The notes beneath the pieces were generated by a model, which worked only from the letters and a program-made list of their open reading frames with translations, made no database searches and had not been told where the DNA came from. Below are positions 24,754 to 29,073 of a DNA stretch of 35,039 bases, one piece after another (within the stretch, counting starts at the first letter, position 1; every line of letters starts with the position of its first letter). The translations under genes were made by a program, and so were the position numbers. Origin of the DNA: a virus. Its lineage: Duplodnaviria; Heunggongvirae; Uroviricota; Caudoviricetes. The stretch is from IMG/VR virus record IMGVR_UViG_2660238349_000014; one strand, 5' to 3'.

Positions 24754-24868
24754 TGTGTGTCTCCTCGTTTGGTGGAGACAGCATCACAAATGTGGCGGGA
24801 TACGGATTTTAAACAGCGTTAATAGTGAAGATGTAAACGTGCACTGCATGATGGCTTTGAAAGAACGA

Positions 24869-24896: not shown

Positions 24897-25001
24897 CCAT
24901 CGCCCCACAGGAATGCGCTGTGAGCCGACCAAGGTTCAGTCAGTCTCGCGAGACCAGACTAGCCTGCCATATTTTTTATAATTGTAAAAGGCTTACAGAT
25001 T

Positions 25002-25772
25002 ATGAAAATGCAGACATTACCCATCGTTCCATGGATTGGTGGCAAACGCCGCCTTGCAAAACACATCCTGCCGCTGTTTCCGGCGCATGAATGTTATGTG
25101 GAGCCGTTTTGTGGGGCAGCAGCGCTCTATTTTCTTAAGGTACCCGGCAAGATCGAAGTCATTAATGATATCAACGGTGAGCTGGTGAACCTGTATCGGG
25201 TGGTAAAACATCATCTGGAAGAATTTGTACGCCAGTTCAAATGGGCGCTGGTCAGCCGGCAGATCTACAAATGGCTGCAGATCACCCCGGAAGAAACACT
25301 GACGGATATCCAGCGTGCAGCACGGTTCTACTACCTTCAGAAGCAGGCGTTTGGGGGCAAGGTGGCGGAGCACAGCTTTGGTACCTCCACCATATCCCCG
25401 CCACGCTTCAACCTGCTGCGTATTGAAGAAGAACTGTCAGCGGCACACCTGCGGCTTTCCAGAACGGTCATAGAACACATGGACTGGCAACAGTGCATAG
25501 AACGATATGATCGCCCGCATACGTTGTTCTACTGTGACCCTCCATACTGGGGAACGGAAGGTTATGGTGTGGAGTTCGGACTAGAAAATTATGATCATAT
25601 GGCAGATTTAGCACGCAGGATCAAAGGGAAGATGATTATATCGGTGAACGATATCCCGGAAATGCGGCAGGCATTCAACGGTCTAAATATTCAGTCGGTT
25701 GATATCAGCTACAACCTCAAGATCACTGGCAAATCCAGTCGCAAGAAGGAACTCATTATCCTCAACTTTTGA
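25002..25772 (+). CDS. DNA adenine methyltransferase (Dam-type), no restriction partner visible
   Basis: 256 aa with a glycine-rich SAM-binding motif (PFCGAAALYF) and the catalytic DPPY motif (FYCDPPYWG). Confidence 0.8.
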   Translation: MKMQTLPIVPWIGGKRRLAKHILPLFPAHECYVEPFCGAAALYFLKVPGKIEVINDINGELVNLYRVVKHHLEEFVRQFKWALVSRQIYKWLQITPEETLTDIQRAARFYYLQKQAFGGKVAEHSFGTSTISPPRFNLLRIEEELSAAHLRLSRTVIEHMDWQQCIERYDRPHTLFYCDPPYWGTEGYGVEFGLENYDHMADLARRIKGKMIISVNDIPEMRQAFNGLNIQSVDISYNLKITGKSSRKKELIILNF

Positions 25773-26967
25773 CCGAATAGTAAGACTTCATGCAGTGAAT
25801 CAAGTACTGCATGAAGTCAAGGGCTGGTTTTGTGTACCAAAAATAAACAGTGATAGCGGTAATAATTCCCATAACTAGAACACCACGTATAATCCAGAAC
25901 GTACGTTTCTGCGTGTCTAGTCGCGCAGAAATACTGCTAAATACACCAGCCACGTCATCTTTAATGAAGGAATATTCCTTATTAATCTGTTTTTCTTTGT
26001 ATTCAATTTCTTCGCCTAAGGCCTTTATAGATTGCATCTGGTTCGAAAGTGCCAGCCAGATTAACGTTGCAGCAAAAATGCATCCCAGAAGAATTATTGT
26101 GTTTGTTATCCCTTGGCCTGACCATTTCGTAGCCACTTTGAATTGGGTAGCTACGATAACAGAGGCAACAGGAATGCCAAGTATATGGTTCTGGATATCT
26201 GAAAACGCTTTGTGGATTTTACCCATTTCTTCGACTTTTGCAGCACGCAGTTGATCCATTACTTTGTCATAAGAGAATCCAGAAGAGTAGATACGATACC
26301 CTTTCAGAAACTTTTCATGCAGACGCTGAATATTGTCCAGTAAATAAGCGAATACTAGAGGTGAATCAATTCCATCACTAACTGCTTGAATACTTTCAAT
26401 CAGAATATCTAGCTTCTGATCCTTATGGGTATCATCATTGAAACAAGCTATAAGGTTATCAAGATACTCCCTTTGCAAATTTTGTACATTTTCTGCAGCG
26501 AAGTGCGGTAATAGCTTGATAACTTCTTTTTTCAGAAAAACTAACTGACAAGTTGAGTTATCAAAGTAGGCCGCGGCCTCTTTTAGCAGGTTAACGAACT
26601 CGAGAATCTTCCGGTAGTTGCTGATGAAAACGGGGATATCTTCATCATCATTACGAAATTTTGTTTCTAGGATGAAGTAATTAGCTGGCTCAAGGCACTG
26701 ATGCTTTGGAGCATTTAGCAATTTTTCATGGGTGGAAAACACAAGTCCCAGTCCACTCCGTGGTGACGTCACACGTAGGATGATCGTGTTACCTGGAGCG
26801 ATAGTGCCTGTATCAATAGAAAGACCATATTCACGAGGATCATCAAGCAAAGTATCAACCAGATCACAATCGGACTGATCTAAGAGCAACAGCGAACCGA
26901 CACGAAACCCCTCTTGGAATTCCATACGACGATACAGAGCTGTCAGCATCTCAAATGAAATCGCCAC
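25762..26967 (-). CDS. membrane protein with a large cytoplasmic N-domain and two C-terminal TM helices; partner of the NdpA-like gene
   Basis: 401 aa. Hydrophobic helices ITNTIILLGCIFAATLIWLALS and TFWIIRGVLVMGIITAITVYFWY. GTG start 2 bp after the upstream stop. AT-richer than the phage backbone. Confidence 0.6.
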   Translation of the reverse strand: MAISFEMLTALYRRMEFQEGFRVGSLLLLDQSDCDLVDTLLDDPREYGLSIDTGTIAPGNTIILRVTSPRSGLGLVFSTHEKLLNAPKHQCLEPANYFILETKFRNDDEDIPVFISNYRKILEFVNLLKEAAAYFDNSTCQLVFLKKEVIKLLPHFAAENVQNLQREYLDNLIACFNDDTHKDQKLDILIESIQAVSDGIDSPLVFAYLLDNIQRLHEKFLKGYRIYSSGFSYDKVMDQLRAAKVEEMGKIHKAFSDIQNHILGIPVASVIVATQFKVATKWSGQGITNTIILLGCIFAATLIWLALSNQMQSIKALGEEIEYKEKQINKEYSFIKDDVAGVFSSISARLDTQKRTFWIIRGVLVMGIITAITVYFWYTKPALDFMQYLIHCMKSYYSVKS

Positions 26968-26969
26968 GA

Positions 26970-27977
26970 TTAAACCTCAGTCATCCACATTTCCCTAAAT
27001 TCTTCAGGTACATTACGTAGGGTGATAATATTTGTTTCCGGATCATAATCAATATAGCCTTCAGTTTTCCCTTCCCGGTCAAACTTAAGTTCCCAATATT
27101 TAGACTTGCCTTTAAAAGATACCAGAGCCCGAATGACTCGACCATCAGGAACGAAGCCATCCGATAACTCCAACTCTTCAGCAGCAAGTTTACCAGATAA
27201 CTCCTCGGGAGCCTGGGGCCAAATGGCATTAACAAGGGTTTCAAGACTAAGTGGTTCACCAGCCTTACTTAGTGCATGTAAGTGTTCAAACGCACTCTTA
27301 AGAAATGCATCTTTTTCAGCGCCGTCAAGTCCTTTCTCTGCCGCAAATGCTTTTAAAACGTCACGTAACTTTTCAGACTCTCGTTTGGCGATTAAGACAT
27401 CATTACAGCCTAGGAACTGTTTAAAATAGTTTGAAACATTACCTTGCCCCTTAAGAAAACTGATATAGCGCTCTGCGCCACTTTCCCACGCGGTTAAGTC
27501 AATGCGCCCAGCCATACGCAGCTTAGCAATATCAAGATAGGTACTATCTTGGATGTTAAAATCATCTGTGACAGTGGACCCAATGGTAGCGCTTACAATA
27601 GCTATCAACAGGTGTTCATTGTGTCCTATCACGATATTTGCAAAAAGAACATAACCACCAGTAGCCATGTTTTCTCGCTGAGAACGTTCCGTCAGGTGAT
27701 GCATCATTCGGCAGGAACTTTGGTAGAAATCATCAACACCTTCGAGAAAGTCCCCAGCCATTCGTTCCATAGGATAGTTATCCGTATCGCCTTCAAAATA
27801 GCCATAACCTTTACCTGTGCGTCCTGCATATTTTGCACAAATATCGTTTATAAGGCGCTGAGAGGCTTCAGTAACTAGACCTTCTTCAGGACTCAATCTC
27901 TCAGAAGCGTCTCCATTTTGTTGTTTGTCTAAAATGTGAACTACAACGTGTTTAACTTCAATGGTCTGCTCAGACAT
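26970..27977 (-). CDS. NdpA/YejK-like nucleoid-associated protein homologue
   Basis: 335 aa. Motifs GGYVLF, LLIAIVS, YLDI, RIDLTAWE and RYISFLKG match, from memory, conserved blocks of E. coli YejK (also ~335 aa). Strong RBS AAGGTGGA before the ATG at 27977. Confidence 0.6.
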   Translation of the reverse strand: MSEQTIEVKHVVVHILDKQQNGDASERLSPEEGLVTEASQRLINDICAKYAGRTGKGYGYFEGDTDNYPMERMAGDFLEGVDDFYQSSCRMMHHLTERSQRENMATGGYVLFANIVIGHNEHLLIAIVSATIGSTVTDDFNIQDSTYLDIAKLRMAGRIDLTAWESGAERYISFLKGQGNVSNYFKQFLGCNDVLIAKRESEKLRDVLKAFAAEKGLDGAEKDAFLKSAFEHLHALSKAGEPLSLETLVNAIWPQAPEELSGKLAAEELELSDGFVPDGRVIRALVSFKGKSKYWELKFDREGKTEGYIDYDPETNIITLRNVPEEFREMWMTEV

Positions 27978-28047
27978 TGGCTATCCACCTTATTTTTTAT
28001 TGCTTAATGGCAAATAATTTCTGCTATATGTTCTCGTTAGGAACACA

Positions 28048-28455
28048 TTAACCCACATTTTTTAACCGCTCAATCGTTGCGGATAATTCCTTCAGTTGTT
28101 TTTCCATCTCAATCACACGCTGTTTTTCTTCAGCGCCTCGCATGAGATCTCGCCGAACCTCAGGATCTAACTGGTTTAGAAGTTCAAGCATTTTAAGGTC
28201 TGACGGGCTGAATTGATGTTGTGTTGGTACAGCAACAATTTCTTTAGATGGAATATGTTCTTTACCGGTAAGTAGCCAATCGATTGATACACCCAAATGG
28301 GTACTTAGCGCAACAAGAGCCTCTGCGTTTGGTTCTCTCTCTCCACGCAAATAGTTTTGAAGTGAGCGATATGGAATTTTTGATAAGTCAGATAATGCCT
28401 TTATTGTCATGCCATTAGCATCCATCACTTCACGCAATCTCTCTTTTGTACTCAT
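28048..28455 (-). CDS. CI-like prophage repressor (XRE-type HTH, no peptidase domain)
   Basis: Start set to the Met of MSTKERLREVMDANGMTIKALSDLSKIPYRSLQNYL... Classic HTH followed by a coiled C-terminus. Divergent from the ner-like gene. Confidence 0.7.
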   Translation of the reverse strand: MSTKERLREVMDANGMTIKALSDLSKIPYRSLQNYLRGEREPNAEALVALSTHLGVSIDWLLTGKEHIPSKEIVAVPTQHQFSPSDLKMLELLNQLDPEVRRDLMRGAEEKQRVIEMEKQLKELSATIERLKNVG

Positions 28456-28471
28456 TTGAACATATCTCAAT

Positions 28472-28499
28472 TTGACACACTCATTTGGGTGTGTACAAT
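28472..28499 (+). promoter_or_regulatory. sigma70-like early promoter overlapped by an operator-like inverted repeat
   Basis: TTGACA (28472..28477), 16-bp spacer, TACAAT (28494..28499), about 45 bp upstream of the ner-like ATG. Inverted repeat ACACAC (28475..28480) / GTGTGT (28489..28494). Confidence 0.6.
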
Positions 28500-28543
28500 A
28501 GACCCAATAGAGTACATCATAACCTAACAGGAACACGGTGCAT

Positions 28544-28768
28544 ATGAACAAACAACAAGTTCGGGCACGGCTGGTTGAACGAGGCAGTAGCTTGCGCCAG
28601 TTCGCGCTTAACGCGGGCTATGAACCACGAACAGTCACCCAGGCAGTCAGTCGCTGGGCTGGTAAAAGTGAACTACCTCGCGGTCGTTTGACTTATCGGA
28701 TTTTGCGAGATCTATCGGTTGCAATAGGTAAAGAAGTTACCCCCGGTATCCTTAAGGAGGCGTCATGA
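28544..28768 (+). CDS. Ner-like / Cro-like DNA-binding protein
   Basis: About 75 aa. SLRQFALNAGYEPRTVTQAVSRW resembles the Mu Ner family pattern. First gene of the rightward early operon, divergent from the repressor. Confidence 0.6.
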   Translation: MNKQQVRARLVERGSSLRQFALNAGYEPRTVTQAVSRWAGKSELPRGRLTYRILRDLSVAIGKEVTPGILKEAS

Positions 28769-29073
28769 ATAAACCAAATACATCAAGCTCAGGTATCCGT
28801 ATTTTGCGCGTTCTTAAGGCCTTACGTGGCCACGCTTTGAACGGTGTTTCTAACGGGGAACTAGCGGTTGCACTGCACGAATCACCGGCAAACATCAACC
28901 GGGCACTTAACACGCTCATTGAAGAAGGGTTGGCTCTGAAACTAGAAAACGGGCGTTTCGCACCAGGCATCCAGTTGCTGCAGATCGCCATGGCCCACAG
29001 TAACGAGATGGCACGTGCACAGGATCGCATTAACGAAATCAACCAACGTGTTATTTCAGGTAGTCGTTTGTAA
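28765..29073 (+). CDS. putative winged-helix DNA-binding protein
   Basis: 102 aa. NGELAVALHESPANINRALNTLIEEGLA looks like a helix-turn-helix. 4-bp overlap with the ner-like stop. Confidence 0.4.
   Translation: MNKPNTSSSGIRILRVLKALRGHALNGVSNGELAVALHESPANINRALNTLIEEGLALKLENGRFAPGIQLLQIAMAHSNEMARAQDRINEINQRVISGSRL

Follow-up and report, generated by a model that had tools for sequence, protein, structure and literature searches.

The 35,039-nucleotide (nt) stretch of viral DNA analysed here (IMG/VR record IMGVR_UViG_2660238349_000014; hereafter the window) is a BcepMu-like, and thus Mu-like, transposable prophage of Escherichia coli, in which two closely spaced genes, here called A and B, follow a CI-type repressor gene on the minus strand. 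Gene A encodes a protein of the YejK/NdpA (NA37) family and gene B a larger membrane protein (Table 1). In our judgement A–B is probably a mobile anti-phage unit of two genes, of the DS-1 / Type II PANGU kind, which travels as lysogenic-conversion cargo within the repressor operon, and a sensor plus membrane effector that would be expressed in the lysogen and exclude other phages is the best-supported reading of the pair. This assessment draws on remote homology to DS-1, on an architecture resembling Type II PANGU, on the strict pairing and co-divergence of the two genes, on the presence of known defence genes among their neighbours and on their status as cargo. The locus is plausibly a divergent, prophage-borne relative of these recently described systems, and as such opens no new category.

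YejK-type nucleoid proteins have been tied to immunity only since 2025–2026, and a prophage-borne copy in a putative repressor operon provides a simple setting in which to study the timing of its expression and the range of phages it would exclude. The first-pass annotation of this DNA, made from the letters of the sequence, was aware of no YejK-like protein in any described defence system; that statement has been overtaken by DS-1 (2025/2026) and PANGU (April 2026). Its proposal of an exclusion or defence function expressed in the lysogen is retained here as the best reading, by way of the remote DS-1 homology and the Type II PANGU-like architecture.

The gene pair and its relation to DS-1 and Type II PANGU

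The arrangement originally described, a 335-amino-acid (aa) YejK-like protein and a 401-aa protein with two transmembrane (TM) helices in near-abutting genes downstream of the repressor, is borne out by the open reading frames (ORFs), the Pfam match of A, the TM profile of B and the intergenic distance. Both the ORF list and the mapping to RefSeq place repressor, A and B in this order, all co-oriented on the minus strand. The A stop codon (TAA) is separated from the B start by 2 nt, and a GAGG Shine-Dalgarno sequence lies within the last codons of A.

With respect to A, the NdpA-family identity that had been expected was found over the full length of the protein: residues 12–327 align with positions 1–324 of the 325-position Pfam NA37 model (PF04245) with E=1e-80 and 272.1 bits, the cut-off being 24.6. 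A also matches phrog_3767 (E=7e-117) and YejK in the Protein Data Bank (PDB; 9be2, E=7e-30), and shares the fold family of the chromosomal YejK/NdpA protein from end to end. Against the NCBIfam YejK equivalog model (NF001557), however, it scores 186.2 bits, under the cut-off of 341, and by this sequence measure it is not the housekeeping YejK orthologue. Unlike chromosomal YejK/NdpA, A is found on mobile elements, is always paired with B, and has an altered cluster of basic residues in the pore of its N-domain.

Protein B matches phrog_5023 from end to end (E=1.9e-142) and has no Pfam family in a scan at E<=0.1, the sole match being a sub-threshold one to SoxE_N that is not credible. Both of its hydrophobic segments are found in 30/30 family members, and in an AlphaFold2 (AF2) model they are separated by a polar helical loop of ~47 residues. 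This model (mean predicted local distance difference test score, pLDDT, 82) consists of an alpha/beta N-domain at residues 1–160 and a helical linker, with long helices at 213–275, 284–331, 333–378 and 380–400; the N-domain modelled alone reached a pLDDT of 94 and a predicted template modelling score of 0.88. A Foldseek comparison of the B model with the PDB returned no match at E<=0.001. Residues 1–261 carry a net charge of -11 (isoelectric point 5.1), and the corresponding region is acidic in 29/30 relatives. Invariant and near-invariant alignment columns are concentrated in the 213–281 helix, with the motif GY..F.SGFSYDKV.DQL..AKVEE.GKIHK.FSDIQN.ILGIPVA.VIVATQ.K, and this is also the segment that aligns best with the B partner of DS-1.

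DS-1 is system 1 of the DefensePredictor study (DeWeirdt, Mahoney and Laub; bioRxiv January 2025, Science 2026; PMC13092281) and comprises E. coli WP_000355468.1 (DS-1A; 391 aa, YejK domain at 42–382), followed after 2 nt by WP_000150292.1 (DS-1B; 404 aa). Cloned with its native promoter, it reduced plating by 7.6 logs for Bas1, 2.7 for Bas26, 1.7 for both Bas3 and T3, and 1.0 for T5 (PMC13092281). Both proteins of the window match the NCBIfam models built for these partners, A matching DS1_1_antiphage (NF053868; nucleoid-associated anti-phage protein) with E=1.4e-17 and B matching DS1_2_antiphage (NF053869) with E=3e-21, which indicates that they belong to the same superfamily without being equivalogs. 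Direct BLASTP comparison gave 23% identity between A and DS-1A (E=8e-9) and 23% identity over about 300 aa between B and DS-1B (E=6e-10), and hhalign of the B family profile with DS-1B gave a probability of 94% (E=1.2e-7, 268 columns). At the level of sequence, these comparisons confirm A and B as remote homologues of the two DS-1 partners. The RefSeq accessions of the window do not appear in the DefensePredictor tables, but several of these were truncated and the absence carries no information.

The gene layout is likewise shared, with an NA37 gene preceding a partner of ~400 aa across a 2-nt gap (391+404 aa in DS-1, 335+401 aa here). B and DS-1B also align in the conserved juxtamembrane motif and in their hydrophobic C-terminal segments, the latter being less hydrophobic in DS-1B. 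A itself scores higher against chromosomal YejK (186 bits) than against DS-1A (64 bits).

The second system of relevance is PANGU, a set of operons encoding a YejK-like nucleoid protein and an effector (bioRxiv April 2026, 10.64898/2026.04.06.716658). In Type II PANGU the effector, Pag2B, combines an acidic 'DNA-mimicking' N-terminal (DMK) domain with a C-terminal TM domain, and in the E. coli system both genes are needed and the phenotype is abortive infection (10.64898/2026.04.06.716658). The nucleoid protein Pag2A is nucleoid-bound before T4 infection and diffuse afterwards, and it binds the isolated Pag2B N-domain with a dissociation constant of 19 nM; the authors state that the mode of action of Pag2B is unknown (10.64898/2026.04.06.716658). 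The A–B locus fits this architecture in being a bicistronic unit of a YejK-like nucleoid-associated protein and a TM effector with an acidic N-domain (-11) and two C-terminal TM segments. It also resembles Type II PANGU in its wide and patchy spread through Proteobacteria, partly linked to defence islands. The PANGU study chose operons near known defence genes, whereas the copy described here is carried by a prophage, as cargo of what is probably the repressor operon.

Table 1. Coordinates of the A–B locus and of the segments of protein B in the window
Feature	Position	Strand	Basis or remark
Exchanged cargo block, 2.3 kb: A, B and short leader	25754..28027		pairwise BLASTN breakpoints
Gene B: 401-aa membrane protein, GTG start, probable effector	25762..26967	minus	RefSeq WP_001007984.1
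B TM segment 2, residues 356-374	25846..25902	minus	Kyte-Doolittle 19-residue window 1.95
B TM segment 1, residues 290-308	26044..26100	minus	Kyte-Doolittle 19-residue window 2.33
B residues 213-281: very long juxtamembrane helix with the family's most conserved motif	26125..26331	minus	alignment and AF2 helix 213-275
B residues 1-212: cytoplasmic alpha/beta and helical N-domain, acidic, candidate docking surface for A	26332..26967	minus	
Gene A: 335-aa YejK/NdpA-family (NA37) protein, probable DNA-clamp sensor	26970..27977	minus	RefSeq WP_000003711.1
Leader, 70 nt, repressor stop to A ATG	27978..28047	minus	AAGGTGG ribosome-binding site
CI/HTH_3-type prophage repressor, 135 aa by RefSeq start	28048..28455	minus	raw ORF reaches 28551

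Cargo status, linkage and spread of the pair

The prophage family was traced with a 5.6-kb query that extended from the holin to the DUF3102 gene; among 5426 complete E. coli genomes, 636 (~12%) gave a match. A–B DNA, at 92–100% identity, is present in 18 of the 5426, and within the prophage family this corresponds to 18/636, the pair being missing from 97% of the family's genomes. Each copy is chromosomal, and its coordinates differ from genome to genome. In pairwise BLASTN, homology to Klebsiella phage KP12 and to the prophage of E. coli CFSAN051542 ends at 25753 and restarts at 28028, from which the exchanged block is seen to consist of A, B and a short leader. The repressor is still homologous, at 82%, in relatives that lack A–B. 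In agreement with the earlier remark that the module is richer in AT than its surroundings, the GC content is 0.39–0.43 over 25501–28500 and 0.52–0.60 on each flank; the repressor falls in this low-GC block too, although it lies outside the exchanged cassette. In Brenneria and Pectobacterium prophages the segment 25826–28004 recurs at 77–80% identity beside non-homologous repressor regions.

Taken together, the 18/636 distribution, the sharp breakpoints and the low GC content support the proposal that the cassette is acquired cargo and not part of the phage core. The same distribution rules out the opposite case, named in the first-pass annotation, of a conserved core gene pair of the phage family with an early function.

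Moving beyond E. coli, a scan of species-representative genomes located 78 B loci in alpha-, beta- and gamma-proteobacteria. Six of these lie at contig ends or carry a truncated B; in every one of the 72 that could be evaluated, an NA37 ORF directly precedes B on its strand. A and B also diverge in step, their pairwise identities being correlated (Mantel r=0.91, 0/999 permutations), which argues that partners are not shuffled between pairs. In one database B forms 166 clusters at 90% identity, and a full hidden Markov model search yielded 1248 representatives at 50% identity. These 1248 clusters define a well-populated divergent subfamily, for which the confidently predicted effector structure can guide mutagenesis.

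The surroundings of the pair, by comparison with this strict internal linkage, are highly diverse. The 130 immediate neighbours (65 upstream and 65 downstream) fall into 106 Pfam families, none of which occurs more than three times, and include resolvases, integrases, a Mu portal, antiterminator Q, type IV secretion system proteins and restriction enzymes. Known defence genes are also represented, namely a type III restriction endonuclease, DpdJ, ZorA, SduA, BrxH, SngC and Dsr1. HTH_3 proteins account for 3/130 neighbours, and homologues are scarce both in isolated-phage records (6/50,697) and in plasmids (6/72,556). This diversity, the low count of HTH_3 neighbours and the rarity in phages and plasmids indicate that A–B is a self-contained mobile cassette whose link to a repressor is limited to the present prophage lineage. 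The repressor linkage emphasized in the first-pass annotation therefore holds for this lineage and fails as a general property of the pair, which in a second E. coli lineage sits next to genes of another kind.

In that second lineage (loci L089–L091, 7001–9203), proteins of 344 aa and 392 aa are encoded at the classic moron site of lambdoid prophages, between the antiterminator Q and holin genes and antisense to the Q-dependent late operon. Its A protein is 50% identical to A of the window, and 392-aa B homologues found in the database search are 37–38% identical to B. Counting the window pair, the lambdoid lineage and DS-1, E. coli would harbour at least three divergent lineages of the two-gene system.

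Two further sets of loci were observed in the genome scan. In Cupriavidus (L065, L066 and L068, 7992–8618, one plasmid included), a 208-aa truncated B with 44% identity to residues 191–392 comprises the conserved juxtamembrane helix and TM region and has no adjacent NA37 gene; these copies are either decayed or a stand-alone membrane module. In Jeongeupia wiesaeckerbachi (CP136946.1; L017 and L021), the A–B pair occurs at two chromosomal sites with the same ORF coordinates in both 17-kb loci, which suggests that it is carried on a repeated mobile element.

Proposed mechanism and competing explanations

If A–B is an anti-phage cassette, its expression in the lysogen would begin with read-through from the repressor promoter and proceed with translational coupling of A and B. 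Such a scheme is suggested by the 70-nt leader, in which a terminator scan found no terminator-like site, and by the 2-nt gap with its internal Shine-Dalgarno sequence. The pair lies on the repressor strand, 70 nt downstream, and the repressor promoter probably supplies A–B transcription. With respect to a promoter of the cassette's own, the only candidate was a 9/12 sigma-70-like match inside the 3' end of the repressor gene; the total of such matches in the region is within shuffled expectation, and we did not use it as evidence.

Once produced, A would be expected from its family membership to sit on the host nucleoid as a dimeric DNA clamp of the YejK fold, a behaviour demonstrated by others with E. 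coli YejK and with Pag2A. Infection by a phage that damages or degrades host DNA would then free A, as shown for the PANGU homologues only. Free A would in turn dock on B at its acidic N-domain in the cytoplasm. Pag2A is known to bind the DMK domain of Pag2B at nanomolar strength; for the present pair, docking is suggested by two features, the acidity of the B N-domain and the strict co-divergence of the two proteins. Finally, we infer that docking would activate the C-terminal helical and TM part of B and thereby perturb the inner membrane, through a channel or pore, resulting in growth arrest and abortive infection. The passage from release of A to arrest by B would follow the homologues, from which it is extrapolated, whereas the membrane perturbation itself is our own suggestion.

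Several observations weigh against this interpretation. The scores of A (63.7 bits) and B (75.9 bits) lie four to five times below the DS-1 equivalog cut-offs of 330 bits (NF053868) and 315 bits (NF053869), so that the similarity is remote, and the assignment to Type II PANGU is one of architecture and not of sequence. DS-1A differs in possessing an N-terminal zinc ribbon (CxxC...CxxC) ahead of an NA37 domain that starts at residue 42; in A, the NA37 match starts at residue 12 and N-terminal Cys pairs are absent. Co-transcription with the repressor, for its part, is deduced from the sequence of the locus.

A final point concerns DNA clamping by A, which is not assured. In E. coli YejK, changes at R173/R176/K177 abolish DNA binding and changes at R276/R280/K284 weaken it. 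At these pore positions A of the window keeps K171 and R280, with Gln in place of R173, R176 deleted, Asn in place of K177, Gly in place of R276 (with an Arg at +1) and Ser in place of K284. Among the 72 B-linked A homologues, basic residues are found at K171 in 71/72, at 173 (K/R) in 56/72, at 280 in 61/72 and at 284 in 47/72, and the family as a whole shows a deletion of R176 and has Asn or an acidic residue in place of K177, position 177 being usually acidic. The family has thus lost two of the three pore residues of the N-domain, and the third, R173, is Gln here. Judged from this residue pattern, clamp-type DNA binding is still plausible for the B-linked A family.

An alternative that we regard as unlikely, yet worth stating, is that the pair is a true analogue of lambda Rex. 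Expression would then come from the repressor promoter only, and B would be a new inner-membrane pore gated directly by the free DNA clamp, with a trigger that is possibly not degradation of the host genome. The B N-domain is without a neighbour among solved structures, and the long helical hairpin in the predicted model most resembles the protomer of an alpha-pore-forming toxin. The trigger could be, for example, loss of DNA binding by A through injected or replicating foreign DNA. Such a trigger, if real, would fit the activity of DS-1 on Bas1, T3 and T5, phages against which none of the PANGU systems tested is active.

The comparison with lambda cI-rexA-rexB had already been drawn in the first-pass annotation, and it holds in position and in proposed function. 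In both cases two co-oriented genes lie immediately downstream of the repressor and would encode a cytoplasmic DNA-interacting sensor and a membrane effector, and the expected outcome, by analogy, is that a superinfecting phage is excluded through arrest of the infected cell. The parallel does not extend to sequence. Pfam includes models for both RexA and RexB, and the scan at E<=0.1 matched neither, giving only NA37 for A and the sub-threshold SoxE_N hit for B. Moreover, B places two TM helices behind a 260-aa cytoplasmic domain, whereas RexB, a protein with four TM helices, lacks a large cytoplasmic domain.

Less likely again is interception of the kind proposed for Kiwa, in which membrane-bound B would sense phage attachment or injection and hold or release A, and A would clamp incoming phage DNA at the membrane, blocking replication and late transcription with no killing of the cell. 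The logic is attractive in that both systems join a membrane protein to a non-sequence-specific DNA binder, YejK being a sequence-independent clamp, and PADLOC gave a weak KwaA match on B residues 262–394 (E=8e-5). This match, however, was seen in just 3/30 B family members. The Foldseek search of the PDB gave nothing at E<=0.001, and no KwaA chain appeared among the 50 matches listed, the presence of the Kiwa structure in that PDB copy being unconfirmed. Kiwa is defined by a four-TM KwaA and a DUF4868 KwaB; A belongs to NA37 and not to the Rossmann-like plus DUF4868 type of KwaB, and the gene order is the opposite one. We accordingly reject a relationship to Kiwa, the KwaA match having gone unreproduced and Foldseek having given it no support. 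As to the mechanism, the homologous Pag2A is nucleoid-bound before infection and diffuse later, and the Type II PANGU phenotype is abortive.

We consider it improbable that the pair has no defensive function at all, A being a mobile-element nucleoid protein that tunes prophage or host expression or transposition, a role proposed for NdpA-like proteins encoded on plasmids, and B an accessory membrane protein with an unrelated role in lysogenic conversion. NA37 proteins are indeed genuine nucleoid proteins, the cassette forms part of a transposable phage's immunity region, and NdpA homologues on mobile genetic elements are discussed in PMC6606824 as regulators of horizontally acquired DNA. Such functions are difficult to reconcile with the absence of the pair from nearly all members of its own prophage family, with an A–B linkage that is invariant across contexts as unrelated as plasmids, conjugative elements and defence islands, and with the protection against phages conferred by the remote homologue DS-1 (PMC13092281).

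Least probable of all is an addiction or self-regulation module, a toxin/regulator couple that stabilizes the prophage or sets its own lysis or induction timing: B is membrane-active by architecture and the cassette separates the repressor from the holin/SLT lysis genes, and next to the holin in the lambdoid relatives too, but in both prophage types transcription runs away from or converges on the lytic genes (on the repressor strand and converging on the methylase here, antisense to the late operon in the lambdoid prophages), most A–B loci are outside prophages, and none of the PANGU constructs tested, Type II single-gene deletions included, was toxic (10.64898/2026.04.06.716658).

The repressor-downstream slot and other features of the locus

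On one side of the repressor the minus strand of the prophage carries the holin, an SLT lysin, a Mu gp27-like protein, the terminase, a Mu-type portal and the genes for head and tail; beyond the repressor, the plus strand carries a ner-like gene, a winged-helix gene, DUF3102, a DDE transposase, a MuB-like ATPase, Gam and Mor. The repressor matches Pfam HTH_3 (E=6e-12) and Phage_CI_repr (E=2.5e-6). A Dam-type methylase gene (25002–25772) converges on the cassette, its 3' end sharing 11 nt (25762–25772) with the 3' end of B. The sister-prophage breakpoint at 25753 is placed in this overlap region, which suggests that the methylase 3' end was reshaped by insertion of the cassette.

The position taken by A–B is occupied differently in related prophages. 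It is empty in EC958, holds one 175-aa gene in KP12 and CFSAN051542, and contains genes for 297-aa and 114-aa proteins, or for 328-aa and 193-aa proteins, in other sister prophages. The slot downstream of the repressor is thus a cargo hotspot in this prophage family, a family found in ~12% of complete E. coli genomes and with other slot occupants that are uncharacterised. Scans of nine alternative slot proteins with PADLOC and NCBIfam models gave nothing credible; these occupants could be uncharacterised exclusion genes. The equivalent slots in sister loci are at 1300–2958 in L004, 2639–3166 in L005 and 3119–4409 in L006, the junction in the window being 28028–28047. The 328-aa slot protein has a weak Flk-like N-terminal match, and its gene overlaps the repressor stop by 4 nt.

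A second variable slot lies between the holin and the Dam methylase (24828–24857). It is empty in the window and holds inserts of 1–1.4 kb in sister prophages, comprising a DUF2441 gene in L005 (1011–1577) and, in L006 and L007 (786–2111), two or three short hypothetical genes.

A remnant of gene A was observed in Salmonella Typhi CP029870.1 (L086, 6001–6597), where a truncated product of 198 aa is 100% identical to A over the common part. The truncated gene belongs to a related Mu-like prophage, where it is placed between the transposase side and the holin; this prophage has lost the repressor, B and the methylase. The truncated protein appears in the index of about 2700 blocks of an assembly collection, from which the remnant appears to be widespread in S. 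Typhi and related assemblies.

The window also contains 61 isolated N bases, 19 of them at 16–19 kb and 30 at 29–32 kb, with 0 in 25000–28999. They give X residues in the translations of the transposase and other genes, and look like masked polymorphic or low-confidence assembly positions.

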